A DNA stretch of 64,000 nucleotides from Haliotis rubra. Lineage: Eukaryota. The stretch covers positions 502,865-566,864 of the forward strand of contig NW_025766525.1 in NCBI RefSeq assembly GCF_003918875.1, read 5' to 3'. The notes beneath the pieces are model-generated. The model was not told where the DNA came from, searched no databases, and saw only the letters and a list, made by a program, of their open reading frames with translations. This document shows positions 8,204 to 55,952 of the stretch, piece by piece. The translations under genes and the position numbers were made by a program. The stretch's first letter is position 1. Every line of letters starts with the position of its first letter.

Positions 8204-8312
8204 AAGATGAAATGTTAAGAGACAGGATAGCACTGATAAACACTGATGGTTTGAGAAAAACATGATCTTAATCTACCAGAGGCTGTAGCCCCAGTTGTAC
8301 AGTAGGACACCT

Positions 8313-10510
8313 CTAGCAAGGGTATATAGGAGCTGTGGACCACAGAGGCTCTAGCCCCAGTTGTACAGGCTGTAGGACATCTCTAGCATGGGTATATAGG
8401 AGCTGTGTAAACCTACAGAGGCTGTAGCCCCAGTTGTACAGTAGGACATCTCTAGCAAGGGTATATAGGAGCTGTGTAAACCTACAGAGGCTGTAGCCCC
8501 AGTTGTACAGTAGGACATCTCTAGCATGGGTATATAGGAGCTGTGTAAACCTACAGAGGCTGTAGCCCCAGTTGTACAGTAGGACATCTCTAGCATGGGT
8601 ATATAGGAGCTGTGTAAACCTACAGAGGCTGTAGCCCCAGTTGTACAGTAGGACATCTCTAGCATGGGTATATAGGAGCTGTGTAAACCTACAGAGGCTG
8701 TAGCCCCAGTTGTACAGTAGGACATCTCTAGCATCTAGCATGGGTATATAGGGAGCATGTGTGTAAACCTACAGAGGCTGTAGCCCCAGTTGTACAGTAG
8801 GACATCTCTAGCATGGGTATATAGGAGCTGTGTAAACCCACAGAGGCTGTAGCCCCAGTTGCACAGTAGGACATCTCTAGCATGGGTATATAGGAGGGTA
8901 CAGAGGCTGTAGCCACAGTTGTACAGAGGCTGTGTAGGAAACCTACAGAGGCTGTAGCCACCAGTTGTACAGTAGGACATCTCTAGCATGGGTATATAGG
9001 AGCTGTGTAAACCTACAGAGGCTGTAGCCCCAGTTGTGTAGGACATCTCTAGTGGGACATCTCTAGCAGGACATCTCTGGGTATATAGGAGCTGTGTGTA
9101 AACCTACAGAGGCTGTAGCCCCAGTTGTACAGTAGGACATCTCTAGCATGGGTATATAGGAGCTGTGTAAACCTACAGAGGCTGTAGCCCCAGTTGTACA
9201 GTAGGACATCTCTAGCATGGGTATATATATAGGAGCTGTGTAAATCTCCTGTAAACCCACAGAGGCTGTAGCCCCAGTTGTAGCACAGAGGCTGTAGCCC
9301 CAGTTGTACAGTAGGACATCTCTAGCATGGGTATATAGGAGCTGTGTAAACCTACAGAGGCTGTAGCCACAGTTGTACAGTAGGACATCTCTAGCATGGG
9401 TATATAGGAGCTGTGTAAACCTACAGAGGCTGTAGCCCCAGTTGTACAGTAGGACATCTCTAGCATGGGTATATAGGAGCTGTGTAAACCTACAGAGGCT
9501 GTAGCCACAGTTGTACAGTAGGACATCTCTAGCATGGGTATATAGGAGCTGTGTAAACCTACAGAGGTTGTGTAGCCCCAGCTTGTACAGTAGGTACACA
9601 TCTCTAGCATGGGGTATATAGGAGCTGTGTAAACCTACAGAGGCTGTAGCCCCAGTGTGCACAGTAGGACATCTCTAGCATGGGTATATAGGAGCTGTGT
9701 AAACCCACAGAGGCTGTCTAGCATGGGTATATAGGAGCTGCCCCAGTTGTACAGTAGGACATCTCTAGCATGGGTATATAGGAGCTGTGTAAACCTACAG
9801 AGGCTGTAGCCCCAGTTGTACAGTAGGACATCTCTAGCATGGGTATATAGGAGCTGTGTAAACCTACAGAGGCTGTAGCCCCAGTTGTACAGCCCCAATT
9901 GTACAGCAGGACATCTCAGGACATCTCTAGCATGGGTATATAGGAGCTGTGTAAACCTACAGAGGCTGTAGCCCCAGTTGTACAGTAGGACCCCAGCTGT
10001 GTACAGTAGGACATCTCTAGCATGGGTATATAGGAGGCTGTAGCCCCAGTTGTACAAGGACATCCTACAGAGGCTGTGTGTAGCCCCAGTTGTACAGTAG
10101 GACATCTCTAGCATGGGTATATAGGAGCTAGCATGTAAACCTACAGAGGCTGTAGCCCCAGTTGTACAGTAGGACATCTCTAGCAAGGGTATATAGGAGC
10201 TGTGTAAACCTACAGAGGCTGTAGCCCCAGTTGTACAGTAGGACATCTCTAGCATGGGTATATAGGAGCTGTGTAAACCTACAGAGGCTGTAGCCCCAGT
10301 TGTACAGTAGGACATCTCTAGCATGGGTATATAGGAGCTGTGTAAACCTACAGAGGCTGTACAGAGGCTGTAGCCCCAGTTGTACAGTAGGACATCTCTA
10401 GCATGGGTATATAGGAGCTGTGTAAACCTACAGAGGCTGTAGCCCCAGTTGTACAGTAGGACATCTCTAGCAAGGGTATATAGGAGCTGTGTAAACCTAC
10501 AGAGGTACAT
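8313..10510. repeat. Satellite array, roughly 69-70 bp unit x about 32 (ctacagaggctgtagccccagttgtacagtaggacatctctagcatgggtatataggagctgtgtaaac)
   Basis: The periodicity was measured directly (cctacagagg at 8411, 8481 and 8550). All six-frame ORFs from 8313 to 10510 are stop-free repeat artefacts. Confidence 0.9.
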
Positions 10511-11440: not shown

Positions 11441-12584
11441 TTGGTTCATTACTACCGATCAATCATCGAAAATAATTGGTTAGCGTCATTATTGAAATGT
11501 GTTAATGCACATAACAAAAAGGGAAAAAATGCAGTTCTTTGGGGTTTTTTTGGCAGAATTTCACATCTTTAATGGATGACTAGTATGTTAGGAACCTAAA
11601 TTTCTTGGAATCTTTAAGATAAATTCAATCATGACTTGAAACGAGCTTGTTGTGCTTACGAAATGTAACAGACAAAACCAACCATGTGAAAAATATTGTT
11701 AATGAAAACAAGTGTTCCAGAATTGTTTGTGTTCGATTATGAGAAATTATGATCGATTGCTTGGTCGTTTAGTCACTACGACCAATCTTCGATTATTTCA
11801 ATTAATCGGACCACCACTACTAGATAGTGACAAACTACTTGTGATACATGCTCGATGTCAAGTACAGAAGTGAAAGAGGAACTGGACGAGATGGTGCAAG
11901 GAGTCATAGCCAAAAAGAAGGATACCAACAAGTTACGAATATAAAAAGATCCTATGGACCTAAACAAGGATCTTAACAGATAGCACTATCCCAGAGGACA
12001 GTGTGCCCAATGGCAAGAATGCCCAATGCCAATTAAGTGGTTTACAAAACTTGATTCATCACCGAGGAGTTTGGCAGATTCCTCTCTAACACAGCACATC
12101 ACTGTTGACCACTTTCAATACTCGGCACATGTATCTCAGAATGTCCCCGTTCGGCATCACCCCAACAAGTGAGGGGTAAGGTTTCCTTACGTACCCCCCA
12201 CCTAATTTTTAACTATGCACTATTGACTAAACTATAGTGTTTGCTCATCACAAAAATAGGAGGGGTACGTAAGGAACTCTTTCCCGGCTAAGGCTACCCG
12301 TGCCGACAACGACCCATTAAATTCTTTTGAAGCGAATTAAAGCCCACAAGCGGATTGCTATTAATAGATCCCCATCGTGGGGGTAGGATACTAGGCTATT
12401 ATGTGCCAAGATGTGCATTTGACATGTTGTCAGCATGTGGAGACTGATGCAATATTCCCTAGGTGTGAGCCACACCGCTCATGCACGCCTTGGCCTGTGT
12501 AATATTTCATGTCTCCTGAACAAGGTACTGACAAATGGAAAAGATAACTTGAGGATGCCACAAAATACAACCGCAAACATCCAC

Positions 12585-18564: not shown

Positions 18565-18741
18565 ATGGGGGTTTTCTCCACTTGTGTGATTGCCCTTGAC
18601 CTCACAACCAGCGTCAGTTTCAAGAAGAAAGTTGAGATAAAGAAGAAGATACTGGACAATGGGGGCATTGTTTCTTTCATCGTCACAAAAAAAGGTACTA
18701 CTTTCTTGATGATAGATATGCTGGATAGATGGCTTGGAAAG
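18565..18741 (+). CDS. PARP4: PARP4 (vault PARP) exon 1, from ATG 18565 (alternative upstream ATG at 18472)
   Basis: MGVFSTCVIALDLTTSVSFKKKVEIKKKILDNGGIVSF matches the human PARP4 N-terminus MVMGIFANCIFCLKVKYLPQQQKKKLQTDIKENGGKFSF. The donor is AAG|gtgtga, phase 0. Confidence 0.55.
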
Positions 18742-19417
18742 GTGTGATAGAGGTGTTACGTTTCTGAAGGATGGGAAACATTTACTCACGTTTATTTCAT
18801 GAAAGTTCTAAGGCTCTGGAAGAATTTGATAAAATGGATAAGGTCATGAAAGTAGAAATGCATGTATCAAGTGGCAAGTGAGGTTTAAAACATCTTGCAG
18901 GGGTTCAAAAATCCCATCGCCCGACGGGCAATCAAATAATGGTATCTTACTTGTCCGTGGGCTACTAGGTAATTTCCATTTATGGTTTCAAACTGCAAAT
19001 AAACTTTGATTTAATTTCATATCTGCTCAAAATGTAGCTATTAAATTTCGCAATGTAAAGTAGAGTTATCTTTCTTTGCTATTTAACACTTTTCAATAAA
19101 TAGTCCAGTAAACATTAACATCAAATACCATGTTGATTTCTTCTTTCATAATTACATCATCATAATTATGTCATAAAATCATGGCAAGTGGAAAATTAGT
19201 CAGGACAAGTTACTTTCTTAAAGTCACTTGCCCTGTGGCAAGTGGCTTTTTAAAAATAAATTTGAACCCCTGTCTTGATTTGCTTGCTGACTAAATAATT
19301 ACTTCCAGAGTGGTTGCAGATATTGTAATTAATTCAGCTTTTGTTTTTTAGAAGACTATTTACATTATATATCTAAGATATATATAACACTAAAACATTC
19401 CTGATTACTTGACACAG

Positions 19418-19616
19418 ACAACACATGTCGTTGGAAATGATCCAGAGAAGTTTGACGTGTCATCAAAATGCAGGATGGCTGTCAAGTACGGCATTCCAGT
19501 TGTCTCCCCAGAGTATGTGTCTGACGCCATCAGGCATGGCCAACTACCACTTACAGATGAGTACATCATTGGTGGGAGAAGCAAGACATCAGATTTCAAG
19601 TCAGGAAAAATTACAG
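19418..19616 (+). CDS. PARP4: PARP4 exon 2 (BRCT region)
   Basis: The acceptor is cacag|ACA. TTHVVGNDPEKFDVSSKCRMAVKYGIPVVSPEYVSDAIRHGQLPLTDEYIIGG matches human CTHIILDNADVLSQYQLNSIQKNHVHIANPDFIWKSIREKRLLDVKNYDP. The donor is ACAG|gtaaaa, phase 1. Confidence 0.7.
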
Positions 19617-22960: not shown

Positions 22961-23208
22961 ACCTGCTTTGAGCAGTACTGGTATGCTGAATACTGGAGGC
23001 TCACTCATTCACTCACTCACTCACTCACTCACTCAGCTACTGTCTACCGTTGTCGTAACTCCTCGAACATAGTCTCTATGATCACTGCGTGAACTTAGCT
23101 CAATCACTTCTTGTCCCATGTTGTTAGATTTTATACAATGTTGTCCAGTGTTGTCAAGTCTTGTCCCATGTTGTCCAGTGTTGTCAAGTCTTGTCCCATG
23201 TTGTCCAG

Positions 23209-25199: not shown

Positions 25200-27600
25200 A
25201 AAGAATTGATGTGAGGTGCTACTAATGTGTATTAAAGTGCAAGAGAAGTACGTAGGAGGTTGCCTACTGGTGTATCCTGGGAGAAGTGCGTAGGAGGTTG
25301 CCTACTGGTGTATTGGGAGAAGTGTGTAGGAGGTTGCCTACTGGTGTATTTGGGAGAAGTGTGTAGGATGTTGCCTACTGATGTGTTTGGGAGAAGTATG
25401 TAGGAGGTTGCCTACTGGTGTATTGGGAGAAGTGTGTAGGAGGTTGCCTACTGGTGTGTTTGGGAGAAGTGTGTAGGAGGTTGCCTACTGGTGTGTTTGG
25501 GAGAAGTGTGTAGGATGTTGCCTACTGGTGTGTTTGGGAGAAGTGTGTAGGATGTTGCCTACTGGTGTGTTTGGGAGAAGTGAGTGAGAGGTTGCCTACT
25601 GATGTATTTGGGAGAAGTGTGTAGGAGGTTGCCTACTGGTGTGTTTGGGAGAAGTGAGTGAGGAGGTTGCCTACTGATGTATTTGGGAGAAGTGTGTAGG
25701 AGGTTGCCTACTGTGTGTGTTTGGGAGAAGTGAGTAGGAGGTTGCCTACTGATGTATTTGGGAGAAGTGTGTAGGAGGTTGCCTACTGGTGTGTTTGGGA
25801 GAAGTGCCCTACTGATGGTGAGAGGTTGCCTACTGATGTGTTTGGGAGAAGTGTGTAGGAGGTTGCCTACTGGTGTGTTTGGGAGAAGTGTGTAGGAGGT
25901 TGCCTGCTGGTGTATTTGGGAGAAGTGTGTAGGAGGTTGCCTACTGGTGTATTTGGGAGAAGTGTGTAGGAGGTTGCCTACTGGTGTGTTTGGGAGAAGT
26001 GAGTGAGAGGTTGCCTACTGATGTATTTGGGAGAAGTGTGTAGGAGGTTGCCTACTGGTGTGTTTGGGAGAAGTGAGTGAGAGGTTGCCTACTGATGTGT
26101 TTGGGAGAAGTATGTAGGAGGTTGCCTACTGGTGTGTTTGGGAGAAGTGTGTAGGAGGTTGCCTACTGGTGTATTTGGGAGAAGTGAGTAGGAGGTTGCC
26201 TGCTGGTGTATTTCGGAGAAGTATGTAGGGGCTTGCCTACTAGTATATTGGGAGAAGTGAGTAGGAGGTTGCCTGCTGTTGTATTTGGGAGAAGTGTGTA
26301 GGAGGTTGCCTACGGGTGTGTTTGGGAGAAGTGAGTGGGAGGTTGCCTACTGATGTATTTGGGAAAAGTGAGTGGGAGGTTGCCTACTGATGTATTTGGG
26401 AGAAGTATGTAGGGGGTTGCCTACTGGTGTATTGGGAGAAGTGTGTAGGAGGTTGCCTACTGGTGTATTTGGGAGAAGTATGTAGGAGGTTGCCTACTGG
26501 TGTATTTGGGAGAAGTATGTAGGAGGTTGCCTACTGGTGTATTTGGGAGAAGTGTGTAGGAGGTTGCCTATTGGTGTATTTGGGAGAAGTGTGTAGGAGG
26601 TTGCCTACTGGTGTATTTGGGAGAAGTGTGTAGGAGGTTGCCTACTGATGTATTTGGGAGAAGTGTGTAGGAGGTTGCCATTTGGGAGGAGAAGTGGAGG
26701 TTTACTGGGAGGGTGAAGTGTAGGAGGTTGCCTACTGGTGTGTTTGGGAGAAGTGAGTGGAGGTTGCCTACTGATGTGTTTGGGAGAAAGTATGTAGGAG
26801 GTTGCCCACTGGTGTGTTTGGGAGAAGTGTGTAGGAGGTTGCCTACTGGTGTGTTTGGGGGAGAAGTGTAGGATGTTGCCTACTGGTGTGTTTGGGAGAA
26901 GTGTGTAGGAGGTTGCCTACTGGTGTATTTGGGAGAAGTGTGTAGGAGGTTGCCCACTGGTGTGTTTGGGAGAAGTGTGTAGGAGGTTGCCTACTGGTGT
27001 GTTTGGGAGAAGTGAGTAGGAGGTTGCCTACTGGTGTATTTGGGAGAAGTGAGTGGGAGGTTGCCTACTGGTGTGTTTGGGAGAAGTGTGTAGGAGGTTG
27101 CCTACTGGTGTATTTGGGAGAAGTGTGTAGGAGGTTGCCTACTGGTGTGTTTGGGAGAAGTGAGTGAGAGGTTGCCTACTGATGTGTTTGGGAGAAGTAT
27201 GTAGGAGGTTGCCTACTGGTTACTGTGTTGTTTGGTAGAAGTGTGTAGGAGGTTGCCTATTGGTGTGTTTGGGAGAAGTTAGTAGGAGGTTGCCTACTGA
27301 TGTGTTTGGGAGAAGTGTGTAGGATGTTGCCTACTGATGTGTTTGGGAGAAGTGTGTAGGAGGTTGCCTACTGGTGTGTTTGGGAGAAGTGTGTAGGAGG
27401 TTGCCTACTGGTGTGTTTGGGAGAAGTATGTAGGAGGTTGCCTACTGGTGTGTTTGGGAGAAGTGAGTGAGAGGTTGCCTACTGATGTATTTGGGAGAAG
27501 TGTATAGGATGTTGCCTACTGGTGTGTTTGGGAGAAGTGTGTAGGAGGTTGCCTACTGGTGTGTTTGGGAGAAGTGAGTGAGAGGTTGCCTACTGATGTG
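25200..27600. repeat. Minisatellite in PARP4 intron 6, about 37 bp x about 65 (gggagaagtgtgtaggaggttgcctactggtgtgttt)
   Basis: Read directly. Confidence 0.9.
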
Positions 27601-27636
27601 TCCTGGAAGTATTCAGTCCTATTGTCCTTGCTGCAG

Positions 27637-29289: not shown

Positions 29290-32040
29290 CATTGTGGTCA
29301 TTATTGAGTACTCACTGAAGAAGATAATGTTATGTAGTTAGCTCACCTGATGCAAGTGCCCAAGACAATGTTATTAAGTAGTCTCACCTGATGCAAGTGC
29401 CCAAAACAATGTTATCAAGTAGGCTCACCTGATGCAAGTGTCCAAAACAATGTTATCAAGTAGTCTCACCTGATGCAAGTGATGTTAGAGTGCCCAGGTG
29501 AAAGGTGCCCAAGACAATGTTATTAAGTAGTCTCACCTGGTGAAGAGTGCCCAAGTCAATGATATCAAGTAGTCTCACCTGGTGAAGAGTGCCCGAGACA
29601 ATGTTATCAAGTAGTCTCACCTGATGCAAGTGCCCGAGACAATGTTATTAAGTAGTCTCACCTGGTGAAGAGTGCCCAAAACAATGTTATCAAGTAGTCT
29701 CACCTGATGAAGTGCCCAAGAACAATGTTATTAAGTAGTCTCACCTGGTGAAGAGTGCCCAAAACAATGTTATCAAGTAGTCTCACCTGATGCAAGTGCC
29801 CAAGACAATGTTATTAAGTAGTCTCACCTGGTGAAGAGTGCCCAAAACAATGTTATCAAGTAGTCTCACCTGATGCAAGTGCCCAAGACAATGTTATTAA
29901 GTAGTCTCACCTGGTGAAGAGTGCCCAAAACAATGTTATCAAGTAGTCTCACCTGGTGAAAAGTGCCCAAAACAATGTTATCAAGTAGTCTCACCTGGTG
30001 AAGAGTGCCCAAAACAATGTTATCAAGTAGTCTCACCTGGTGAAAAGTGCCCAAAACAATGTTATCAAGTAGTCTCACCTGGTGCAAGTGCCCAAAACAA
30101 TGTTATCAAGTAGTCTCACCTGGTGAAAAGTGCCCAAAACAATGTTATCAAGTAGTCTCACCTGGTGAAAAGTGCCCAAGACAATGTTATCAAGTAGTCT
30201 CACCTGGTGAAAAGTGCCCAAAACAATGTTATCAAGTAGTGCAGAAAAGTGCCCAAAACAATGTTATCAAGTAGTCTCACCTGGTGAAAAGTGCCCAAAA
30301 CAATGTTATTAAGTAGTCTCACCTGGTGAAAAGTGCCCAAAACAATGTTATCAAGTAGTCTCACCTGGTGAAAAGTGCCCAAAACAATGTTATCAAGTAG
30401 TCTCACCTGGTGAAAAGTGCCCAAGACAATGTTATTCAAGTAGTCTCACCTGGTGAAAAGTGCCCAACATAATGTTATTAAGTAGTCTCACCTGGTGAAA
30501 GAGTGCCCAAGACAATGTTATCAAGTAGTCTCACCTGGTGAAAAGTGCCCAAAACAATGTTATCAAGTAGTCTCAAGTAGTCTCACAATGTTATCAAAGT
30601 CTCACCTGGTGCCCAAAACAATGTTATCAAGTAGTCTCACCTGGTGAAAAGTGCCCAAAACAATGTTATCAAGTAGTCTCACCTGGTGAAAAGTGCCCAA
30701 AACAATGTTATCAAGTAGTCTCACCTGGTGAAAAGTGCCCAAAACAATGTTATCAAGTAGTCTCACCTGGTGAAGAGTGTGCCAAAGACAATGTTATCAA
30801 GTAGTCTCACCTGGTGAAAAGTGCCCAAGATAATGTTATTAAGTAGTCTCACCTGGTGAAAAGTGCCCAAAACAATGTTATCAAGTAGTCTCACCTGGTG
30901 AAAAGTGCCCAAAACAATGTTATCAAGTAGTCTCACCTGGTGAAAAGTGCCCAAGACAATGTTATTAAGTAGTCTCACCTGGTGAAAAGTGCCCAAGATA
31001 ATGTTATCAAGTAGTCTCACCTGGTGAAAAGTGCCCAAAACAATGTTATCAAGTAGTCTCACCTGGTGAAAAGTGCCCAAGACAATGTTATCAAGTAGTC
31101 TCACCTGGTGAAAAGTGCCCAAAACAATGTTATCAAGTAGTCTCACCTGGTGAAAAGTGCCCAACATAATGTTATTAAGTAGTCTCACCTGGTGAAAAGT
31201 GCCCAACATAATGTTATTAAGTAGTCTCACCTGGTGAAAAGTGCCCAAAACAATGTTATCAAGTAGTCTCACCTGGTGAAGAGTGCCCAAAACAATGTTA
31301 TCAAGTAGTCTCACCTGGTGAAAAGTGCCCAAAACAATGTTATCAAGTAGTCTCACCTGGTGAAAAGTGCCCAAAACAATGTTATCAAGTAGTCTCACCT
31401 GGTGAAAAGTGCCCAAAACAATGTTATCAAGTAGTCTCACCTGATGCAAGTGCCCAAGACAATGTTATTAAGTAGTCTCACCTGTGCAAGTGCCCAAGAC
31501 AATGTTATTAAGTAGTCTCACCTGGTGAAGAGTGCCCAAAACAATGTTATCAAGTAGGTCTCACCTGATGAAAAGTGCCCAAAACAATGTTATTAAGTAG
31601 TCTCACCTGGTAAAAAGTGCCCAAAACAATGTCATCAAGTAGTCTCACCTGGTGAAGAGTGCCCAAACAATGTTATCAAGTAGTCTCACCTGGTGAAAAG
31701 TGCCCAAACAATGTTATCAAGTAGTCTCACCTGGTGAAAAGTGCCCAAAACAATGTTATCAAGTAGTCTCACCTGGTGAAAAGTGCCCAACATAATGTTA
31801 TTAAGTAGTCTCACCTGGTGAAAAGTGCCCAACATAATGTTATTAAGTAGTCTCACCTGTGAAAAGTGCCCAACAAATGTTACAAGTCAAGTAGTCTCAC
31901 CTGGTGAAAAGTGCCCAACATAATGTTATTAAGTAGTCTCACCTGTGAAAAGTGCCCAACATAATGTTATTAAGTAGTCTCACCTGTGAAAAGTGCCCAA
32001 CATAATGTTATTAAGTAGTCTCACCTGTGAAAAGTGCCCA
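29290..32040. repeat. Minisatellite in PARP4 intron 10, about 42 bp x about 65 (gtagtctcacctggtgaaaagtgcccaaaacaatgttatcaa)
   Basis: Read directly. The unit resembles the sequence just upstream of the exon 11 acceptor (aatgttatga...atttagctcacctggctctgttgcag). ORFs 29866-31449 are artefacts. Confidence 0.9.
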
Positions 32041-32112
32041 ACATAATGTTATGATTTATTAGTCACCGAAATGTTAATGACATGGTATTTAGCTCACCTG
32101 GCTCTGTTGCAG

Positions 32113-32296: not shown

Positions 32297-32299
32297 GTA

Positions 32300-33286
32300 G
32301 GATGCTTTGACTGCCAGGCTGATGTTTGAGTATGTTTTGATTGCAAGGCTGATGTTTGAGTATGTCTGACTGCCAGGCTGATGTTTGAGTATGTCTGACT
32401 GCCAGGCTGATGTTTGAGTATGTTTGACTGCCAGGCTGATGTTTGAGTATGTTTGACTGCCAGGCTAATTGTTTAGTATGTTTGACAGCCAGGCTGATGT
32501 TTGAGTATGTCTGACTGCCAGGCTGATGTTTGAGTATGTCTGACTGCCAGGCTGATGTTTGAGTATGTCTGACTGCCAGGCTGATGTTTGAGTATGTTTG
32601 ACAGCCAGGCTGATGTTTGAGTATGTCTGACTGCCAGGCTGATGTTTGAGTATGTCTGACTGCCAGGCTGATGCTTTAGTATGTTTGACTGCCAGGCTGA
32701 TGTTTGAGTATGTTTGACAGCCAGGCTGATGTTTGAGTATGTCTGACTGCCAGGCTGATGTTTTAGTATGTTTGACAGCCAGGCTGATGTTTGAGTATGT
32801 TTGACTGCCAGGCTGATGTTTGAGTATGTTTGACTGCCAGGCTGATGTTTGAGTATGTCTGACTGCCAGGCTGATGTTTGAGTATGTCTGACTGCCAGGC
32901 TGATGCTTTAGTATGTTTGACTGCCAGGCTGATGTTTGAGTATGTTTGACAGCCAGGCTGATGTTTGAGTATGTCTAACTGCCAGGCTGATGCTTTAGTA
33001 TGTTTGACAGCCAGGCTGATGTTTGAGTATGTTAGACTGCTAGGCTGACGTTTTAGTATGTTTGACAGGCTGATGTTTGACTGTTTGACTGCCAGGCTGA
33101 TTTTTGAGATGTTTGACTGCCAGGCTGATGTTTGAGTATGTTTGACTGCCAGGCTGATGTTTGTGTATGTTTGACTGTCAGGCTGATGTTTGAGTGTCAG
33201 GCTGATGTTTGACTGTTTGACTGCTAGGCTAATGTTTGAGTATGTTACTGTGCCAGGCTGATGTGTGATGATGTTTTTACTTCCAG
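32300..33286. repeat. Minisatellite in PARP4 intron 11, about 29 bp x about 34 (ctgatgtttgagtatgtctgactgccagg), abutting exon 12
   Basis: Each unit contains ccag|gctgatg, which is identical to the real acceptor plus the first 7 nt of exon 12 (ccag|GCTGATGag). Confidence 0.9.
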
Positions 33287-34314: not shown

Positions 34315-34539
34315 GTGATAGTTCTCCAGGAGTACTACAACACCAGTGACACTGCTGTGGAGGCCAAATATGTGTTTCCTCTGGACGACATGGCTGCTGT
34401 GTGTGGGTTCGAAGCATTTATCAATGACAAGCACATCATAGGCGAGGTCAAAGAGAAGGAGCAGGCTCACAAGGAGTACAAGAAGGCTGTCAGTGAAGGT
34501 CATGGAGCTTATCTGATGGACAGAGATGAAGAGACACCG
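34315..34539 (+). CDS. PARP4: PARP4 exon 14 (VIT domain)
   Basis: The acceptor is tctgcag|GTG and the donor is CCG|gtaagt. VIVLQEYYNTSDTAVEAKYVFPLDDMAAVCGFEAFINDKHIIGEVKEKEQAHKEYKKAVSEGHGAYLM matches human VIVFQTYTNKSHVPIEAKYIFPLDDKAAVCGFEAFINGKHIVGEIKEKEEAQQEYLEAVTQGHGAYLM. Confidence 0.9.
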
Positions 34540-34605
34540 GTAAGTTTGGCTGAAGGTCAACAGTGAAGGTCATGGAGCTTATCTGATTGACAGAGATGAA
34601 GACAC

Positions 34606-35172
34606 CATTCTTTTCCCACAGAGGTTACTCCTGTCATATCTTCCCACATGTAACCTCTGTTCTAATAATGCCCTTTCATGGTGTGAGCTGCTTCAAGACT
34701 CCTCGGATTGGAGACAATCAGATTTAGTTGTGCAATCAGCAACGCTTGTTTCAAAAGTGATCATTCGCAAGGCCCTCGGTAATTTCCGTGATACTTCGAG
34801 AAAACTAAACCTTCTTCCCGCGCCGATGCGCTAAACGCTTCCTCTAGACAGAACTCAGTCATGTTATGGCGGATCAGTGGATCTCCATCGCCTCGCTGAC
34901 AACGGACAAGCTAGCCATTAAACGCCTTGTGTGTAACATCAACACAAGTCCCCGCAGATGGGGATATTTGTGGCTTCACATTTGCTTGTGTTAGTCAAGT
35001 TGAATCTAAGTCGATGTAACACCTGTTCTGATTGGATAGAAAGAAGGGAGATAATTCATTTTGCGATCTTTGCCGCTTAGGGATTTTAAGAGAACCGGGA
35101 AATATGGCCGTATTAGAACAGAGGTTACGTGTAGGAAGATATGACAGGAGTAACCTCTGTGGGAAGAGAATG
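34606..35172. mobile_element. MITE (about 567 bp, TIRs of about 55 bp), copy 1, in PARP4 intron 14
   Basis: The left TIR is cattcttttcccacagaggttactcctgtcatatcttcccacatgtaacctctgttctaata. Its reverse complement lies at 35118-35172 (tattagaacagaggttacgtgtaggaagatatgacaggagtaacctctgtgggaagagaatga). Confidence 0.7.
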
Positions 35173-35809
35173 ATGAAGAGACACTGGTAAGTTTGGCTGA
35201 AGGTCAACAGTGAAGGTCGTGGACATTATCTCATGGACAGAGATGAAGAGACACTGGTAAGTTTGGCTGAAGGTCAACAGTGAAGGTCATGGAGCTTATC
35301 TCATGGACAGAGATGAAGAGACACTGGTAAGTTTGGCTGAAGGTCAACAGTGAAGGTCATGGAGCTTATCTGATGGACAGAGATGAAGAGACACCGGTAA
35401 GTTTGGCTGAAGGTCAACAGTGAAGGTCATGGAGCTTATCTGATGGACAGAGATGAAGAGACACCGGTAAGTTTGGCTGAAGGTCAACAGTGAAGGTCAT
35501 GGAGCTTATCTGATGGACAGAAGATGAAGAGACACACCTGTAAGTTTGGCTCAAGGTCAACAGTGAAGGTCATGGAGCTTATCTGATGGACAGAGATGAA
35601 GAGACACTGGTAAGTTTGGCTGAAGGTCAACAGTGAAGGTCATGGAGCTTATCTCATGGACAGATTAAGAGACACTGGTAAGTTTGGCTGAAGGTCAACA
35701 GTGAAGGTCATGGAGCTTATCTGATGGACAGAGATGAAGAGACACCGGTAAGTTTGGCTGAAGGTCAGTAGTGATGCTCATGGAGCTTATCTGATGGACA
35801 GAGATGAAG

Positions 35810-36377
35810 CATTCTCTTCCCACAGAGGTTACTCCTGTCATATCTTCCCACGTAACCTCTGTTCTAATAATGGCCCTTTCATGGTGTGAAGCGTTCAAGA
35901 CTTCGTGATTGGAGACAATCAGATTTAGTTGTGCAATCAGCGGCGTTGTTTCAAAAGTGATCATTTGCAAGGCCTCGGTAATTTCCGTATACTCGAGAAA
36001 ACTAAACCTCTTCCCCTGCGCGCGATGCGCATAGCGTTTCCTCTAGACAGAACTCAGTCATGTTATGGCCCGGATCAGTGGCGTCTCCATCGCCCTCGTT
36101 GACAACGGACAAGCTAGCCATTAAAGCGTCTTGTGTGTAACATCAACACAAGTCCCCGGCAGATGGGGGATATTTGTGGCTTCACATTTGCTTGTGTTAG
36201 TCAAGTTGAATCTAAGTCGATGTAACACCTGTTCTGATTGGATAGAAAGAAGGGAGATAATTGCATTTTTGCGATCTTTTGCGCTAGGGATTTTAAGAGA
36301 ACGGGAAATATGGTCAGATTAGAACAGAGGTTACGTGAGGAAGATATGACAGGAGTAACCTCTGTGGGAAGAGAATG
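35810..36377. mobile_element. MITE copy 2 (same family as 34606-35172)
   Basis: It is near-identical to copy 1 and sits in the same donor-repeat context. This implies duplication of a MITE-plus-array block. Confidence 0.7.
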
Positions 36378-36679
36378 AGATGAAGAAGAGACACTGGTAA
36401 GTTTGGCTGAAGGTCAACAGTGAAGGTCATGGAGCTTATCTCATGGACAGAGATGAAGAGACATTGGTAAGTTTGGCTGAAGGTCAACAGTGAAGGTCAT
36501 GGAGCTTATCTCATGGACAGAGATGAAGAGACACTGGTAAGTTTGGCTGAAGGTCAACAGTGAAGGTCATGGAGCTTATCTCATGGACAGAGATGAAGAG
36601 AGAATGGTAAGTTCGGTCATCAGTGAAGGTTATGGGGTGTGTTGTAAGAGAAGGTCATTTATCCATTCTGATGGACAGA

Positions 36680-37200
36680 ATTTTAGGATTGCAGTAAGTT
36701 AGAGGTGAAGGTCTGACAGGGATGTTGTCAGGGAAGATTGTGGATCTTGTCTGATACAGTAAGTTAGAGGTGAAGGTCTGACAGGGATGTTGTCAGGGAA
36801 GATAGTGGCTCTTGTCTGATACAGCAAGTTAGAGGTGAAGGTCTGACAGGGATGTTGTCAGGGAAGATTGTGGATCTTGTCTGATACAGTAAGTTAGAGG
36901 TGAAGGTCTGACAGGGATGTTGTCAGGGAAGATTGTGGATCTTGTCTGATACAGTAAGTTAGAGGTGAAGGTCTGACAGGGATGTTGTCAGGGAAGATTG
37001 TGGATCTTGTCTGATACAGTAAGTTAGAGGTGAAGGTCTGACAGGGATGTTGTCAGGGAAGATAGTGGCTCTTGTCTGATACAGCAAGTTAGAGGTGAAG
37101 GTCTGACAGGGATGTTGTCAGGGAAGATTGTGGATCTTGTCTGATACAGTAAGTTAGAGGTAAGGTCTGACAGGGATGTTGTCAGGGAAGATTGTGGATC
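36680..37200. repeat. Tandem array, about 62 bp x 8 (cagtaagttagaggtgaaggtctgacagggatgttgtcagggaagattgtggatcttgtctgata)
   Basis: Read directly. Confidence 0.85.
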
Positions 37201-37319
37201 TTGTCTGATACAGTAGAGAATAACGTCTTGATTGAAAGAGAACAACAGGGCTCCCACGGGTCAGGGAAAAGTCAGAACCAGGCATATTGATATTGCTGTC
37301 ATCACTAAGAACCAGTTTC

Positions 37320-37376
37320 TGTGAGCATGTTTAATGTTTCAGGATGTTTAATGTTTCAGCATGTTTAATGTTTCAG
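37320..37376 (+). repeat. Triplicated exon 15 acceptor motif (atgtttaatgtttcag x3) immediately upstream of exon 15
   Basis: The sequence reads gcatgtttaatgtttcag gatgtttaatgtttcag catgtttaatgtttcag|GATGTG. Confidence 0.85.
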
Positions 37377-37541
37377 GATGTGTTCACAGTGAGTGTTGGC
37401 AACCTCCCACCCCATGCATCTGTCCTCATCAAGATTACTTACGTAGCTGAACTACAGGTTGAAGCAGAACTTATAAGTTTCCGGTTACCAGGCAGTGTGG
37501 CACCATGGAAGCAAGACTCTGCAGCTGATGAAATCACTCAG
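37377..37541 (+). CDS. PARP4: PARP4 exon 15 (VIT domain)
   Basis: The acceptor is gtttcag|GAT and the donor is CAG|gtattt. DVFTVSVGNLPPHASVLIKITYVAEL...VAPWKQD matches human DVFTVSVGNLPPKAKVLIKITYITEL...VAPWQQD. Confidence 0.9.
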
Positions 37542-37985: not shown

Positions 37986-38125
37986 AGAACTGCTGCCAAG
38001 GCTGTAGTGCAGATGTGTCATGGACAGTCAATACAAGATGGCTTCCAGCTCCTGATTGGGCTGGCTGAGATACACGTGCCACGGATGTGGGTAGAGAGAC
38101 ATCCAGAGAGAGAGACATGCATCAG
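37986..38125 (+). CDS. PARP4: PARP4 exon 17 (end of VIT domain), with a phase problem at its 3' end
   Basis: The acceptor is cttccag|AGA. RTAAKAVVQMCHGQS...GLAEIHVPRMWVERHPERETCI matches human RTDCKAVISTMEGSS...GLSAAYLPRMWVEKHPEKESE. The only GT donor (CATCAG|gtaggc) leaves phase 2, which is incompatible with exon 18 (phase 0). The difference is one AG unit in a (AG)5 run. Confidence 0.6.
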
Positions 38126-40010
38126 GTAGGCTGGCAGAGGAATGATGGTCTAGTTTGTGGGTAGAGAGACATCCAGAGAGAGAGAGACATGCATCAGGCA
38201 GGCAGGCAGAGGAATGATGGTCTAGTTTGTGGGTGGAGAGACATCCAGACAGAAAGAGACATGCATCAGGTAGGCTGGCAGAGGAATGATGGTCTGGTTT
38301 GTGGGTGGAGAGACATCCAGAGAGAGACATGCATCAGGTAGGCAGGCAGAGGAATGATGGTCTAGTTTGTGGGTGGAGAGACATCCAGAGAGAGAGAGAC
38401 ATGCATCAGGTAGGCAGGCAGAGGAATGATGGTCTAGTTTGTGGGTAGAGAGACATCCAGAGAGAGAGAGACATGCATCAGGCAGGCAGGCAGAGGAATG
38501 ATGGTCTAGTTTGTGGGTGGAGAGACATCCAGACAGAAAGAGACATGCATCAGGTAGGCAGGCAGAGGAATGATGGTCTAGTTTGTGGGTGGAGAGACAT
38601 CCAGAGAAAGACATGCATCAGGTAGGCAGGCAGAGGAATGATGGTCTAGTTTGTTGGTGGAGAGAGACCAGAGAGAGAGAGAGACATGTATCAGGTAGGC
38701 AGGCAGAGGAATGATGGTCTAGTTTGTGGGTAGAGAGACATCCAGAGAGAGACATGCATCAGGTAGGCAGGCAGAGGAATGATGGTCTAGTTTGTGGGTG
38801 GAGAGACATCCAGGAGAGACACATCAGGTAGGCAGGCAGAGAGATGGTCATGCATCCAGAGACATGCATCAGGTAGGCAGGCAGAGGAATGATGGTCTAG
38901 TTTGTGGGTGGAGAGACATCCAGAGAGACATGATCATAGGCTGGCAGAGGAATGATGGTCTTGTTTGTGGGTAGAGGACATCCAGGCATCAGAGGAATGA
39001 TGGTCTAGTTTGTGGGTGGAGAGACATCCAGAGAGAGACATGCATCAGGTAGGCAGGCAGAGGAATGATGGTCTAGTTTGTGGGTAGAGAGACATCCAGA
39101 GAGAGAGAGACATGCATCAGGTAGGCAGGCAGAGGAATGATGGTCTAGTTTGTGGGTGGAGAGACATCCAGAGAGAGACATGTATCAGGTAGGCAGGCAG
39201 AGGAATGATGGTCTAGTTTGTGGGTGGAGAGACATCCAGAGAGAGACATGTATCAGGTAGGCAGGCAGAGGAATGATGGTCTAGTTTGTGGGTAGAGAGA
39301 CATCCAGAGAAAGACATGTATCAGGTAGGCTGGCAGAGAAATGATGGTCTGGTTTGTGGGTGGAGAGACATCCAGAGAAAGACATGCATCAGGTAGGCAG
39401 GCAGAGGAATGATGGTCTAGTTTGTGGGTGGAGAGACATCCAGAGAGAGAGAGACATGTATCAGGTAGGCAGGCAGAGGAATGATGGTCTAGTTTGTGGG
39501 TAGAGAGACATCCAGAGAGAGACATGCATCAGGTAGGCAGGCAGAGGAATGATGGTCTAGTTTGTGGGTGGAGAGACATCCAGAGAGAGACATGCATCAG
39601 GTAGGCAGGCAGAGGAATGATGGTCTAGTTTGTGGGTGGAGAGACATCCAGAGAGAGACATGCATCAGGTAGGCAGGCAGAGGAATGATGGTCTAGTTTG
39701 TGGGTGGAGAGACATCCAGAGAAAGACATGTATCAGGTAGGCAGGCAGAGGAATGATGGTCTAGTTTGTGGGTAGAGAGACATCCAGAGAGAGAGAGACA
39801 TGCATCAGGTAGGCAGGCAGAGGAATGATGGTCTAGTTTGTGGGTGGAGAGACATCCAGAGAGAGACATGTATCAGGTAGGCAGGCAGAGGAATGATGGT
39901 CTAGTTTGTGGGTGGAGAGACATCCAGAGAGAGAGACATGCATCAGGTAGGCAGGCAGAGGAATGATGGTCTAGTTTGTGGGTAGAGAGACATCCACAGA
40001 GAGAGACATG
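38050..40010. repeat. Exon 17 donor-derived minisatellite in intron 17, about 68-76 bp x about 27
   Basis: The unit gtgggtggagagacatccagagagagacatgcatcag|gtaggcaggcagaggaatgatggtctagttt reproduces the exon 17 3' end (WVERHPERETCI) plus the GT donor. The (ag)n length varies between copies. ORFs 38028-38614 and 39253-39525 are artefacts. Confidence 0.9.
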
Positions 40011-40150
40011 CATCAGGCAGGGGATGCCGCATGCGACATGTTATATGTGTGTTTGGATCGTTGTTGTTGTTTGAGTAACATCATGGTGTGCCAGGTTCAT
40101 GTTGGGTATTCCCTCCACAATCATTCTTTGTTCTTCATTCTATATTCTAG

Positions 40151-40469: not shown

Positions 40470-43140
40470 TGTTGTGGATTGGTAACGTCATGACACAAGG
40501 TTGTGGGAAGGTTGTAGATTGGTAACATCATGACACAGCGTTGTGGGAAGGTTGTAGATTGGTAATGTCATGACACAATGTTGTGGGAAAGTTGTAGGTT
40601 AGTAACATCATGACACAACGTTGTGGGAAGGTTGTAGATTGGTAACGTCATGACACAACGCTGTGGGAAGGTTGTAGATTGGTAATGTCATGGTACAATG
40701 TTGTGGGAAGGTTGTAGATTGGTAACATCATGACAACATTGTGGGAAGGTTGTCGATTGGTAATGTCATGACACAAGGTTGTGGGAAGGTTGTAGATTGG
40801 AAACGTCATGACAACGTTGTGGGAAGGTTGTAGATTGGTAACGTCATGACAGCAATTTTGTGGGAAGGTTGTAGATTAGTAACGTCATGACACAAGGTTG
40901 TGGGAAGGTTGTAGATTGGTAACATGATGACACAGCGTTGTGGGAAGGTTGTAGATTGGTAATATCATGACACAGTGTTGTGGGAAGATTGTAGATTGGT
41001 AACGTCATGACACAACGTTGTGGGAAGGTTGTAGATTGGTAACATCATGACACAGCATTGTGGGAAGGTTGTAGATTGGTAACGTCATGACACAACGTTG
41101 TGGGAAGGTTGTAGATTGGTAATGTCATGACACAATGTTGTGGGAAGGTTGTAGATTGGTAACATCATGACACAATGTTGTGGGAAGGTTTTAGATTGGT
41201 AACGTCATGACACAATGTTGTGGGAAGGTTGTAGATTTGTAATGTCATGACACAACATTGTGGGCAGGTTATAGATTGGTAACGTCATGACACAATGTTG
41301 TGGGGATGTTGTAGATTAGTAACATCATGACAACGTTGTGGGAAGGTTGTAGATTGGTAACGTCATGAAACAACGTTGTGGGAAGGTTATAGATTGGTAA
41401 TGTCATGAGAAAAGGTTGTGAAAAGGTTATAGATTGGTAACGTCATGACACAATGTTGTGGGAAGGTTGCAGATTGGTAATGTCATGACACAATGTTGTG
41501 GGGATTTTGTAGATTGGTAACGTCATGACACAATGTTGTGGGGATGTTGTAGATAAGTAACATCATGACACAGCGTTGTGGGAAGGTTGTAGATTGGTAA
41601 TGTCATGACACAACGTTGTGGGAAGGTTATAGATTGGTAATGTCATGAGAAAAGGTTGTGAAAAGGTTATAGATTGGTAACGTCATGAGAAAAGGTTGTG
41701 GGAAGGTTGTAGATTGGTAATGTCATGACACAGCGTTGAGGGAAGGTTGTAGATTGGTAACGTCATGAGAAAAGGTTGTGGGAAGGTTATAGATTGGTAA
41801 TGTCATGACACAGCGTTGTGGGAAGGTTATAGATTGGTTACGTCATGAGAAAAGGTTGTGGGAAGGTTGTAGATTGGTAATGTCATGACACAGCGTTGTG
41901 GGAAGGTTGTAGATTGGTAACGTCATGACAAAGGTTGTGGGAAGGTTATAGATTGGTAATGTCATGACACAGCGTTGTGGGAAGGTTATAGATTGGTAAC
42001 GTCATGAGAAAAGGTTGTGGGAAGGTTGTAGATTGGTAATGTCATGACACAGCGTTGTGGGGATGTTGTGGATTGGTAACGTCATGACACAATGTTGTGG
42101 GGATGTTGTAGATTGGTAACGTCATGACACAAGGTTGTGGGAAGGTTGTAGATTGGTAACATCATGACACAGCGTTGTGGGAAGGTTGTAGATTGGTAAT
42201 GTCATGACAGCGTTGTGGGAAGGTTGTAGATTGGTAATGTCATGACACAGGCGTTGTGGGAAGGTTGTAGATTGGTAATGTCATGACACAGCGTTGTGGG
42301 AAGGTTGTAGATGTCATGACACAGCGTTGTGGGAAGGTTGTAGGTTGGTAATGTCATGACACAGCATTGTGGGAAGGTTGTAGATTGGTAACATCATGAC
42401 ACAACGCTGTGGGAAGGTTGTAGATTGGTAATGTCATGACACAGCGTTGTGGGAAGGTTGTAGATTGGTAATGTCATGACACAGCGTTGTGGGAAGGTTA
42501 TAGATGTCATGACACAGCGTTGTGGGAAGGTTATAGATTGGTAATGTCATGACACAGCGTTGTGGGAAGGTTGTAGGTTGGTAATGTCATGACACAGCGT
42601 TGTGGGAAGGTTGTAGATGTCATGACACAGCGTTGTGGGAAGGTTGTAGGTTGGTAATGTCATGACACAGCGTTGTGGGAAGGTTGTAGATTGGTAATGT
42701 CATGACACAACGTTGTGGGAAGGTTATAGATTGGTAATGTCATGACACAGCGTTGTGGGAAGGTTGTAGATGTCATGACACAGCGTTGTGGGAAGGTTGT
42801 AGATGTCATGAGACAGCGTTGTGGGAAGGTTGTAGATGTCATGACACAGCGTTGTGGGAAGGTTGTAGATGTCATGACACAGCGTTGTGGGAAGGTTGTA
42901 GGTTGGTTATGTCATGACACAGCGTTGTGGGAAGGTTGTAGATTGGTAATGTCATGACACAACGTTGTGGGAAGGTTATAGATTGGTAATGTCATGACAC
43001 AGCGTTGTGGGAAGGTTGTAGATGTCATGACACAGCATTGTGGGAAGGTTGTAGATGTCATGACACAGCGTTGTGGGAAGGTTGTAGATGTCATGACACA
43101 GCGTTGTGGGAAGGTTGTAGATGTCATGACACAGCGTTGT
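40470..43140. repeat. Minisatellite in PARP4 intron 18, about 39 bp x about 68 (gttgtgggaaggttgtagattggtaacgtcatgacacaa)
   Basis: Read directly. ORFs 42660-43208 are artefacts. Confidence 0.9.
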
Positions 43141-43459
43141 GGCAAATTGCCAAATAAACATTGAAGTGAATTTCTGCTTTGTTTCTTACTACTGGGAAAA
43201 CAATTCAACTATTAACATAAATAGAACGTTAAGTCAACGTAAAATACGTTAGTGTCAAATACCTTAACGTAAATGGGAGCCCATCAGAATAACGTTGTAA
43301 CAGCGAAAGCATAATGTGGTGACTTCATTTTGTAGAATAGACGAATATGGGTCTGAATGATGACATAAAGGAAGACACCCTAGTTTGTGAACTATGATAA
43401 ATTGGGAGTAATATTTGAGTAAGTTATGTTCCTGTACATGGTGTTTGGTGTGTTGCCAG

Positions 43460-47459: not shown

Positions 47460-48700
47460 AAACACTGTCAGTGTTGTGGGGTGGCTTATCTCACCACTGT
47501 GGGATGGCTTATCTCACTTCTGTGGGGTGGCTTATCTCATCACTGTGGGGTGGCTTATTTCACCACTGTGGGGTGGCTTATTTCACCACTGTGGGGTGGC
47601 TTATCTCACCACTGTGGGGTGGCTTATCTCACTACCGTGGGACGGCTTATCTCACCACAGTATGATGGCTTATCTCACCACTGTAGGGTGGCTTATCTCA
47701 CCACTGTGGGGGAATTATCTCTTTTCCGTTGGGGGCTTATCTCACCACTATTGGGTGGGGTATCTCACCACTGTGGGGTGGCTTGTCTCACCTCTGTGTG
47801 TGTGTGTGGGGGGGCTTGGGGGCCTTATCTCACCACTGTAGGATGGCTTATCTCATCACTGTAGGGTGGCTTATCTCACCACTGTGGGGTGGCTTATCTC
47901 ACTTCTGTGGAGTAGCTTATCCCATCACTGTGGGGTGGCTTATCTCACCACTGTGGGGTGGCTTATCTCACCACTGTGGGGTGGCTTATCTCACTTCTGT
48001 GGAGTAGCTTATCTCATCACTGTGGGGTGGCTTATCTCATCACTGTAGGCTGGCTTATCTCACTTCTGTTGGGGGCTTATCTCACCACTATTGGGTGGGG
48101 TATCTCACCGCTGTGGGGTGGCTTGTTTCATGACTGTGGGGCTGCTTATCTCACCAATCTGGGGTGGCTTATCCCATCACTGTGGGGTGGCTTATCTCAC
48201 CACTGTGGGGGTTTATCTCACTTCTGTGGAGTAGCTTATCTCATCACTGTGGGGTGGCTTATCTCACCACTGTTGGGGGCTTATCTCACTTCTGTTGGGG
48301 GCTTATCTCACCACTATTGGGTGGGGTATCTCACCACTGTGGGGTGGCTTGTCTCACCACAGGGTGTGTGTGTGGGGGGGCCTTATCTCACCACTGAGGG
48401 GTGGCTTATCTCACCACTGTGGGGGGCTTATCTCACCACTGTGGGGTGGCTTATCTCACCACTGTGGGGTGGCTTATCTCACCACTGTGGGATGGCTTGT
48501 CTCATCACTGTGGGTGGCTTATCTCATCACTGCGGGTGGCGTATCTCACCACTATTGCTTGGCTTATCTCACCACTATTGCTTGGCTTATCTCACCACTG
48601 TGGGGTGGCTTATCTTACCACTGTGGGGTGGCTTGTCTCACCACTGTGGGGTGGTGTATCTCATCACTGTGGCTTATGTCGACACTTTTGGGTGGCTTAT
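47460..48700. repeat. Minisatellite in PARP4 intron 21, about 23 bp x about 54 (cactgtggggtggcttatctcac)
   Basis: Read directly. ORFs 47454-48747 are artefacts. Confidence 0.9.
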
Positions 48701-55104: not shown

Positions 55105-55254
55105 GCCAGCCTGGCTAGTAACATTGTCTTGAATGCACATGTTAAAGATGCACTTCACACAATGCCTCAATAGCTGACATGTTCATGTGTTGTAAAGGCA
55201 CCAAGCACATTAGGGTATAAATGTTCAATTTAGTTTCCTGTGAGGAAGTGTGTG

Positions 55255-55560
55255 GTCATCACTGAGGTAAAAGATCATGGCAGACCTAGAAGACCGAGGA
55301 AGACCAATGACTGTTATGTTGTGACTGTTAAGTCCACACTGCTGGTGTGGTGTTGTGTGTGGCCATCAGTGAGGTAAAAGATCATCGCAGACCTAGAAGA
55401 CCGAGGAAGACCAATGACTGTTATGTTCTGACTGTTAAGTCCACACTGCTGGTGTGGTGTTGTGTGTGGCCATCAGTGAGGTAAAAGATCATCGCAGACC
55501 TAGAAGACCGAGGAAGACCAATGACTGTTATGTTGTGACTGTTAAGTCCACACTGCTGGT
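55255..55560. repeat. Tandem repeat, about 120 bp x 3
   Basis: ggccatcagtgaggtaaaagatcatcgcagacctagaagaccgaggaagaccaatgactgttatgtt.tgactgttaagtccacactgctggtgtggtgttgtgtgt occurs three times. Confidence 0.85.
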
Positions 55561-55952
55561 GTGGTGTTTTGTGTCAATGAGTTGGATCTCGTTACCGGGC
55601 GGAAGTACTGGATACTGCAATCATGCCACATTTGATCACCATCCCAATTCCAGGCCCAGCTTGTTACTGTAAAGGGCACTTGCTCTTCAGCCACTGGTGC
55701 TCCACAGGGATGTGCCCTTTCTCCTATCTCGTTTATTTGCTCTACAAATAACTGCCAGTGTACAATAACTGTCTTATGATGCAGCTCAGCTGGTTTTGAT
55801 AAGGATTCAGAACTGGAATACAAAGCAGAGATTTCTAAATTTGTCATGGTGTAAAGGTACTTTTCTATTCTTTAATTGTAACAAAACTACAGAAATTAGT
55901 ATAGATTTCAGAAAATGGAAATGGTCTTAGTCTTTGGTTCTGAAATTTTAAA

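Follow-up and report, generated by a model that had tools for sequence, protein, structure and literature searches.

A minisatellite spanning a splice donor junction in a predicted PARP4 gene of Haliotis rubra

Which splice site does a gene use when the end of one of its exons, together with the 5' splice site (donor) that closes it, has been copied over and over into the intron that follows? The question is raised by a 64,000-nucleotide stretch of the Haliotis rubra genome (contig NW_025766525.1, positions 502,865 to 566,864 of the forward strand; hereafter the window), in which an exon-intron junction of a gene assigned to PARP4 is repeated head-to-tail downstream of the authentic donor. A first, sequence-only reading of the window had seen in these copies a set of possible competing donors with potential regulatory significance. 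Our analysis points to a plainer answer, which we regard as probable: the array would be a lineage-specific, near-neutral minisatellite that happens to span the junction, the authentic and most upstream donor being used and the copies leaving with the intron. We see in it, most probably, a mutational by-product of very frequent tandem duplication and not a designed feature.

The exon concerned (34315-34539, + strand) ends in GACACCG/GTAAGTTTGG, that is GACACCG/GTAAGTTTGGCTGAAGGTCAA at the exon/intron boundary (marked here and below by a slash), and its translation, VIVLQEYYNTSDTAVEAKYVFPLDDMAAVCGFEAFINDKHIIGEVKEKEQAHKEYKKAVSEGHGAYLMDRDEETP, closes with ...KKAVSEGHGAYLMDRDEETP. The 70-bp repeat unit consists of the last 49 nt of this exon and the first 21 nt of the intron, arranged head-to-tail with a start-to-start spacing of 70 nt. 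Tandem Repeats Finder (TRF) detects period 70 in two stretches: one at 35172-35809 scores 1116, with 9.1 copies and 94% matches; the other, at 36385-36613, scores 437, with 3.3 copies and 97% matches. Full units are identical to the true junction at 34491-34560 in 65-70 of 70 positions (93-100%), two of them, with donors at 35397 and 35467, throughout, and the mean pairwise identity of the 11 full units is 94%. The match of unit to junction is far above chance, and the array begins at the real donor, the authentic junction being monomer 1. The sequence-only reading had described the unit as the exon 3' end plus donor and had made this depend on alignment to the exon-intron boundary; the alignment was run and the description holds. 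The intron is 2,837 nt long and nearly all of it is array, transposon or derived array, with the following features in order:

34315..34539, + strand: PARP4 VIT-domain exon, here e13 (Pfam VIT E=2e-34; tblastn to orthologous exons L001-L004; in-frame splicing model); its last 49 nt are the exonic part of the unit.
34491..34560, + strand: monomer 1, the authentic junction, with donor GT at 34540-34541 (CCG/GTAAGT); the ...DEETP/V boundary is conserved in all homologous exon open reading frames (ORFs).
34561..34605, + strand: 5' part of monomer 2, severed from its own donor (now at 35187) by insertion of a terminal inverted repeat (TIR) element, as placed by unit alignment.
34606..35172, + strand: TIR mobile element, copy 1, 567 bp, predicted to be non-autonomous and to resemble miniature inverted-repeat transposable elements (70-nt arms 91% complementary; strong fold, z=-10.3).
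35173..35809, + strand: block 2 of the 70-bp array, nine pseudo-donors (35187 to 35748) and a terminal partial unit (TRF 9.1 copies; donor list; unit alignments).
35810..36377, + strand: TIR mobile element, copy 2 (39-nt inverted repeat, 100% complementary; exact flanking 8-bp direct repeat AGATGAAG).
36378..36606, + strand: block 3 of the 70-bp array, three pseudo-donors (36397, 36467, 36537), with the unit variants of the first block 2 units.
36607..36693, + strand: diverged monomer of 87 bp whose donor, ATG/GTAAGTTC, is degenerate, retaining exon-derived CAGTGAAGGTTATGG and TCTGATGGACAGA.
36694..37215, + strand: 65-bp array, eight copies 98% alike with a three-unit (195-bp) higher-order pattern (TRF, unit list).
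37327..37376, + strand: tandem triplication at the acceptor, 17 bp x 3.2 (TTTAATGTTTCAG; unit ATGTTTAATGTTTCAGG), the real acceptor being the last copy (TRF).
37377..37541, + strand: next PARP4 exon (DVFTVSVGNLPP...), acceptor partner of the authentic donor (translation, tblastn, splicing model); the exon starts at 37377, where the sequence-only reading had put the acceptor.

A scan for GTAAGTT recovered 12 intact extra donors (G/GTAAGTTTGGC), at 35187, 35257, 35327, 35397, 35467, 35540, 35610, 35678, 35748, 36397, 36467 and 36537, and one degenerate extra donor at 36607. There are thus 12-13 extra copies, or about 14 unit-equivalents when the real donor at 34540 is included, and the earlier count of more than 15 was too high; the related 65-bp array would add six GTAAGT and two GCAAGT sites. 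The statement that every copy carries CCG/GTAAGT proved right for the intronic half, positions +1 to +10 (GTAAGTTTGG) being unchanged in 12/12 extra donors, and wrong for the exonic half, positions -3 to -1 reading CCG in three, CTG or TTG in eight and CCT, with T at -1, in one. Three extra donors therefore equal the real site throughout -3 to +6. Donors of the form CCG or CTG/GTAAGT match the consensus at 8 of 9 positions, strength being expressed here as matches by position and not as Shapiro-Senapathy values. The change from CCG to CTG or TTG is consistent with CpG loss at -2/-1, as expected of unconstrained methylated DNA.

The surrounding gene is PARP4 (vault poly-ADP-ribose polymerase) by its predicted domain architecture, in agreement with the sequence-only reading: the spliced conceptual protein contains, in Pfam order, PARP_reg (3.6e-07), PARP (2.1e-31), VIT (7.6e-37) and VWA_3 (3e-12), and BRCT-like N-terminal exons were located by tblastn. 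Exons were mapped by tblastn with ORF peptides of the orthologous loci L001, L003 and L004, which are ENA contigs found via homologues of the exon ORFs, and at least 22 lie on the + strand from the ATG at 18565. The exon bearing the junction is the 13th mapped conserved coding block from that ATG; it would be the 14th if a non-coding first exon existed or one poorly conserved exon had gone undetected, and the label exon 14 used earlier is plausible. The search of the protein collection for a full-length PARP4 homologue yielded nothing beyond ORF fragments of one exon each, from eukaryotic contigs; the best exon identity among them was 85%. The boundary ...GHGAYLMDxDEETP/GT is conserved in all homologues, indicating that the exon sequence is ancestral and that the array was derived from the exon. 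The comparison of orthologous introns that had been proposed was carried out, and those of L001 (990 bp), L003 (356 bp) and L004 (62 bp) contain no copy of their own junction and no minisatellites, microsatellites being present. Judged by these three relatives, the array is lineage-specific.

The sequence-only reading placed three array blocks directly after the real donor. The array does start there; what it missed is that the blocks are kept apart by two copies of the 567-bp TIR element. The arms of this element measure 39-70 nt and are 91-100% complementary, its fold-back has z=-10.3 against shuffles, and the two copies align with 94% column identity and interrupt the 70-bp unit at an identical position. 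About 20 indels of one or two bases distinguish them, many in homopolymer runs, and the ratio of indels to substitutions between them is unusually high. No further occurrence of the TIR sequence was found elsewhere in the 64-kb window. The same terminus, CATTCTCTTCCCACAGAGGTTACTCCTGTCATATCTTCC, is present in the public contig PEAW01033114.1 (L005 963-1042), where it starts at the same CATT with 87-94% identity and has an unrelated flank; this contig holds the only related copy found at an unrelated locus, and it confirms the boundaries of the element and indicates that it is mobile. The direct repeat AGATGAAG is exact on both sides of copy 2, and the flanks of copy 1 are similar with small indels; the target is GA-rich and repetitive, so that a chance match is possible. 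An 8-bp direct repeat is hAT-like and the element possibly belongs to the hAT superfamily. Units following each TIR copy have common variants (CTCATGG, CACTG) and the deeper units of block 2 are of the exon type. Two independent transposon insertions were considered and rejected because of the common position within the unit and the identical variants of the units that follow; one insertion and a later duplication are preferred. Since the insertion split monomer 2, the first intact pseudo-donor (35187) lies 647 nt from the real donor. In the pre-mRNA, pairing of the adjacent inverted arms (35131-35172 with 35810-35851) could loop out block 2. Scanned against Rfam, the whole window yielded no family reaching the gathering threshold, and no structured RNA accounts for the repeats or the TIR element.

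Downstream of block 3 the intron holds what appear to be older derivatives of the same junction unit. The 87-bp monomer at 36607-36693 aligns globally with z=5.4 against shuffles and locally matches the exon at 26 of 33 positions. The 65-bp array behind it relates to the 70-bp unit with z=4.1 against shuffles, agrees without gaps with the exon sequence TCAGTGAAGGTCATGGAGCTTATCTGAT at 22 of 28 positions, and reaches a score of 13 with the exon end, where 42 non-adjacent junctions gave at most 9. Its donors read ACA/GTAAGT in six copies and GCAAGT in two. The relation of both repeats to the junction unit suggests that the intron records repeated rounds of amplification seeded at one junction. 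Within the 65-bp array GCAAGT replaces GTAAGT in every third unit, and another unit has ATAGTGGCT for ATTGTGGAT. At the far end of the intron, either upstream AG of the triplication before the 37377 acceptor would add 17 or 34 nt and lead to an in-frame TAA (37327-37381).

From this anatomy the following history can be proposed. A donor-spanning segment of 70 bp would have been duplicated in tandem by slippage or unequal exchange, an origin judged likely here; the sequence-only reading had named replication slippage as one alternative. An earlier round of amplification may have left the diverged monomer and seeded the 65-bp array; the 567-bp TIR transposon would then have inserted in one unit, and unequal exchange between units, over about 1.2 kb, would have duplicated the transposon with neighbouring units, giving the three blocks. 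Two TGAAGGTCA 9-mers (exon -46 and intron +12) were considered as the seed of the slippage; their spacing is 57 nt and not 70, so the unit boundary was not set by them. In the transcript, the spliceosome would join the most upstream of the identical donors to 37377, as in analogous human cases, and the other copies would leave as ordinary intron. Duplications across the junction would be tolerated because the extra copies fall within the intron. The probable costs are an intron swollen from less than 1 kb to 2.8 kb, a stock of cryptic donors that mutation of the real donor would bring into use, and an exon end that becomes an exchange partner for the array copies.

Arrays of this kind have been described before. 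In several human genes, minisatellites have their first monomer over an exon-intron boundary and reiterate the donor in the intron (Borensztajn et al. 2006, PMC1557585). In intron 7 of F7 (IVS7) the unit is 37 bp (4 nt of exon and 33 nt of intron), there are 5-9 sites and only the most upstream is used; 50 minigene constructs showed that the repeated donors, though functional, stay silent, the choice falling in every case on the most upstream functional site (PMC1557585). Pseudo-sites raised to a consensus value of 91 still did not compete, and only perfect-consensus sites did so, partly (PMC1557585). As the same paper reports them, the other human cases fall on both sides. LMNB2 (100 bp x 10-15; a 1997 paper cited in PMC1557585) and PDGF (PDGFA) intron 4 (81 bp x 16-18; cited in PMC1557585) use the authentic site only. 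IFI6-16 (IFI6) intron 2, with 25 pseudo-sites (Turri et al. 1995, cited in PMC1557585), and CBS intron 13 (IVS13), with a 31-bp variable number tandem repeat (VNTR) of 15-20 repeats (Yang et al. 2000, cited in PMC1557585), constitutively use the authentic site and the first two pseudo-sites. Megasatellites overlapping exon-intron junctions in vertebrate genomes have also been reported and read as recent formation (bioRxiv 10.1101/2021.07.19.452908).

The PARP4 array has a unit within the 10-100 bp range set head-to-tail, the authentic junction in monomer 1 and the donor reiterated in the intron, and on these structural grounds it fits the class of F7 IVS7, a kind already described. It shares with F7 the head-to-tail order and the placing of all copies downstream within the same intron, but differs in that 49 of 70 nt of the unit are coding rather than 4 nt being exonic, in having 12-13 extra copies rather than 5-9 sites, in a donor (GTAAGT) much nearer the consensus than the gtgggt of F7, and in enclosing a duplicated transposon and being followed by an older derivative array. 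The silence of the F7 copies is experimentally proven, whereas for PARP4 it is predicted by analogy. To judge from the summary of LMNB2 and PDGFA, their large monomers (81-100 bp) that include the junction, in arrays making up most of the intron, resemble the 70-bp array and two further PARP4 arrays, of 68 and 29 bp, described below. IFI6 and CBS, as summarised there, likewise reiterate the junction many times, but their units are short and the extra sites lie within tens of nucleotides, unlike PARP4, where the first intact pseudo-donor stands 647 nt off and any use of a copy would run into a premature stop codon. Megasatellites differ in having motifs of at least 90 bp that are mostly multi-exonic or coding, the PARP4 unit being 70 bp and coding in the first copy only.

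What would happen if a copy were used can be read from the sequence. A TGA lies in frame nine codons beyond the real donor (read-through ...EETPVSLAEGQQ, then stop) and would be met whichever downstream donor was chosen; a copy donor spliced to a CAG within a later unit would likewise give a TGA immediately after CCG. Downstream donors are therefore not expected to yield a productive alternative isoform, and the earlier argument that a 70-nt unit, not being a multiple of 3, would produce frameshifted isoforms is moot.

A rival reading takes up the competing donors of the sequence-only reading: a meaningful share of transcripts would splice from the copies, retain 0.65-2.0 kb of intron with a premature stop and be degraded by nonsense-mediated decay, PARP4 output then being tuned by the length of the array. 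The stop nine codons past the real donor would make decay targets of such isoforms, all 12 intact copies keep GTAAGTTTGG and three cannot be told from the real site over -3 to +6, and for IFI6-16 and CBS two proximal pseudo-sites are reported in use, with an association of the CBS VNTR with reduced activity (PMC1557585). Against this, F7, LMNB2 and PDGF use the authentic site exclusively, with the upstream F7 site winning up to a pseudo-site consensus value of 91, and where pseudo-sites do serve it is the nearest one or two only (PMC1557585). Here the nearest has been pushed 647 nt away by the transposon. The copies show no sign of selection for or against GT, and the array is young. An exon extension of 650 nt or more is also disfavoured under exon definition. 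We consider competition from the copies unlikely, although it deserves to be kept in view.

Several points nevertheless weigh against the silent minisatellite that we favour. The silence of the PARP4 copies is argued from mammalian genes, and two of these, IFI6-16 and CBS, use their first two pseudo-sites constitutively (PMC1557585). The PARP4 donors are stronger than the natural F7 sites and lie between the tested values of 91, at which no competition was seen, and 100, at which it was. The geometry is unlike that of F7: 647 nt, including a hairpin-forming transposon, separate the real site from the first intact pseudo-donor downstream. Classical in-vitro work, by Reed and Maniatis in 1986 and Eperon et al. 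in 1993, reportedly found that when several 5' sites are occupied and equally strong, the winner can be the site nearest the acceptor. Assembly quality, too, may affect the copy number and small indels within the repeats.

Does the array stand alone in this gene? We compared 13 intragenic arrays with the exon junctions of PARP4, taking as controls 42 non-adjacent junctions, which scored at most 9. A 68-bp array at 38086-40021 (27.6 copies) repeats the last ~40 nt of exon e16 (...MWVERHPE...) and its donor; it scores 43.5 against the control maximum of 9, and CAG/GTAGGC is kept in 24 of 28 copies. Its donor copies run from 38197 to 39946, ahead of the exon at 40151. With it PARP4 has a second donor-junction minisatellite, larger than the first. 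A 29-bp array fills the 990-nt intron at 32297-33286 and repeats the e11 acceptor junction, CCAG/GCTGATG...AGTATG (score 14 against 9), placing 31 pseudo-acceptors, within 32320-33270, upstream of the real e11 acceptor at 33287, which alone has a good pyrimidine tract (TTTTTACTTCC). Before the acceptor at 23209, a perfect 30-bp x 2.4 tandem repeat at 23138-23208 duplicates the pyrimidine tract and AG (ATGTTGTCCAG). Seven arrays (43-, 39-, 37-, 42-, 27-, 40- and 23-bp) had no detectable relation to exon sequence in this test. Altogether, tandem arrays with periods of 23-70 bp occupy about 45% of the PARP4 span 18565-50962, several being 1-2.7 kb long (for example 25243-27601, 29326-32052, 40471-43142 and 47475-48672). 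The orthologous regions of the three relatives are without minisatellites, and the PARP4 introns here are greatly inflated by comparison.

The presence of several junction arrays and of 45% array content here, against none in the relatives, points to a high local rate of tandem duplication as the driver. The view that an intronic array of this composition is uncommon and may be regulatory is not supported, in view of the human examples (PMC1557585), the presence of at least three such arrays in PARP4 and a gene span that is 45% minisatellite. The array is an expected by-product of a minisatellite-prone genome or locus and calls for no new mechanism. PARP4 also differs from the human cases in that donor-type and acceptor-type arrays occur together in one gene.

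These findings also bear on a role for the array that would not involve splicing. About 20 intronic GTAAGT sites could recruit the U1 small nuclear ribonucleoprotein as a binding platform that suppresses premature cleavage and polyadenylation or promotes nuclear or chromatin retention of the pre-mRNA. Telescripting and U1-dependent retention are known general phenomena, and the one point in favour of such a role here is how densely strong U1-complementary sites are packed. Orthologous introns lack the array, which is hence not conserved, its copies are young with neutral CpG decay, and a platform would leave the acceptor-junction and non-junction arrays of PARP4 unexplained. We hold this role to be extremely improbable.

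In two places, within repeats or low-complexity runs, the reading frame of the assembled gene fails. Exon e16 as assembled ends in phase 2 at CAG/GTAGGC (38125/38126), whereas the next exon (40151, ACMLTF...) requires phase 0, which is the phase of the same ...CAT CAG/GT donor in the L003 orthologue. The first e16 copy, whose (GA)n run lies at 38103-38113, measures 40 nt from TGTGGGT to CAG, one GA more than the in-frame 38 nt found in 14 of 26 copies. The first coding exon (ATG 18565) ends in ACAAAAAAAG/GTACTA and its run of seven A's, at 18686-18692, puts the next exon, TTHVVGN..., out of phase by one base (18680-18700 and 19409-19420). Six A's at the e1 donor would give TKK/TTHVV in frame, and this problem is possibly a homopolymer error. 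Apart from the e1 and e16 donors, all exons splice in frame (e3 to e22). Imperfect consensus in repeats and low-complexity runs is the likeliest source of the frame problems, though the +2 (GA) shift in e16 may be a real frameshift taken over from the array.

That last possibility belongs to a broader proposal, in which PARP4 is a hotspot of repeated splice-junction capture by minisatellites (two donors and at least one acceptor), the arrays exchange with the exons they copied, the GA shift is a real allele brought in through slippage or unequal exchange and the gene is being damaged by its own junction arrays, or else the pseudo-donors throttle expression through nonsense-mediated decay. We find this distinctly doubtful.

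Should the array itself, or its length and three-block layout, then be put down to mis-assembly or over-expansion of a repeat? The indels between the TIR copies and the breaks of frame at two low-complexity runs, the A7 of the e1 donor and the (GA)n of the e16 donor, are what such an artefact might leave, and the array-specific join of intron to exon was not found in public metagenome contigs, a weak point as the species or its close relatives are seemingly absent there. Collapse or expansion does not, however, produce the structured variation seen: CpG decay, variants in matching order behind each TIR copy, a transposon with a possible target-site duplication, and diverged older derivatives beside the array. 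The matching variants after each TIR copy (of C/T type) and the CpG decay form a coherent mutational history, unlike identical artefactual copies, exons e3 to e22 are otherwise in frame, and PARP4 contains several arrays of this kind that are independent of one another. An artefact is very unlikely.

The array offers a natural test case for the choice of the spliceosome among identical sites, with 13 near-consensus donors, 28 copies of another donor junction and 32 of an acceptor junction in one gene. PARP4 could test, outside mammals, the rule that the most upstream donor wins, with donors stronger than those of human F7 and a hairpin-forming transposon between the real site and the first copy, and could test the matching expectation for acceptors, as the real e11 acceptor is the last of 32. 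Such arrays also mislead gene predictors and read aligners, and mark places of likely assembly errors or real frameshifts.

Three further repeats or remnants were noted in the window. At 55248-55574, in a 3' part of the gene to which the exon map does not extend, a 107-bp x 3.1 repeat (97% matches) has a unit containing CAGTGAG/GTAAAAG, with no ORF or exon evidence there. Upstream of PARP4, 8277-10505 is a degenerate 2.2-kb array with a 69-bp period. The segments 8074-8229 and 11894-12173, also upstream, give weak translated matches to ORFs beside a reverse-transcriptase gene in L004 and are apparently retroelement remnants, with stop codons.

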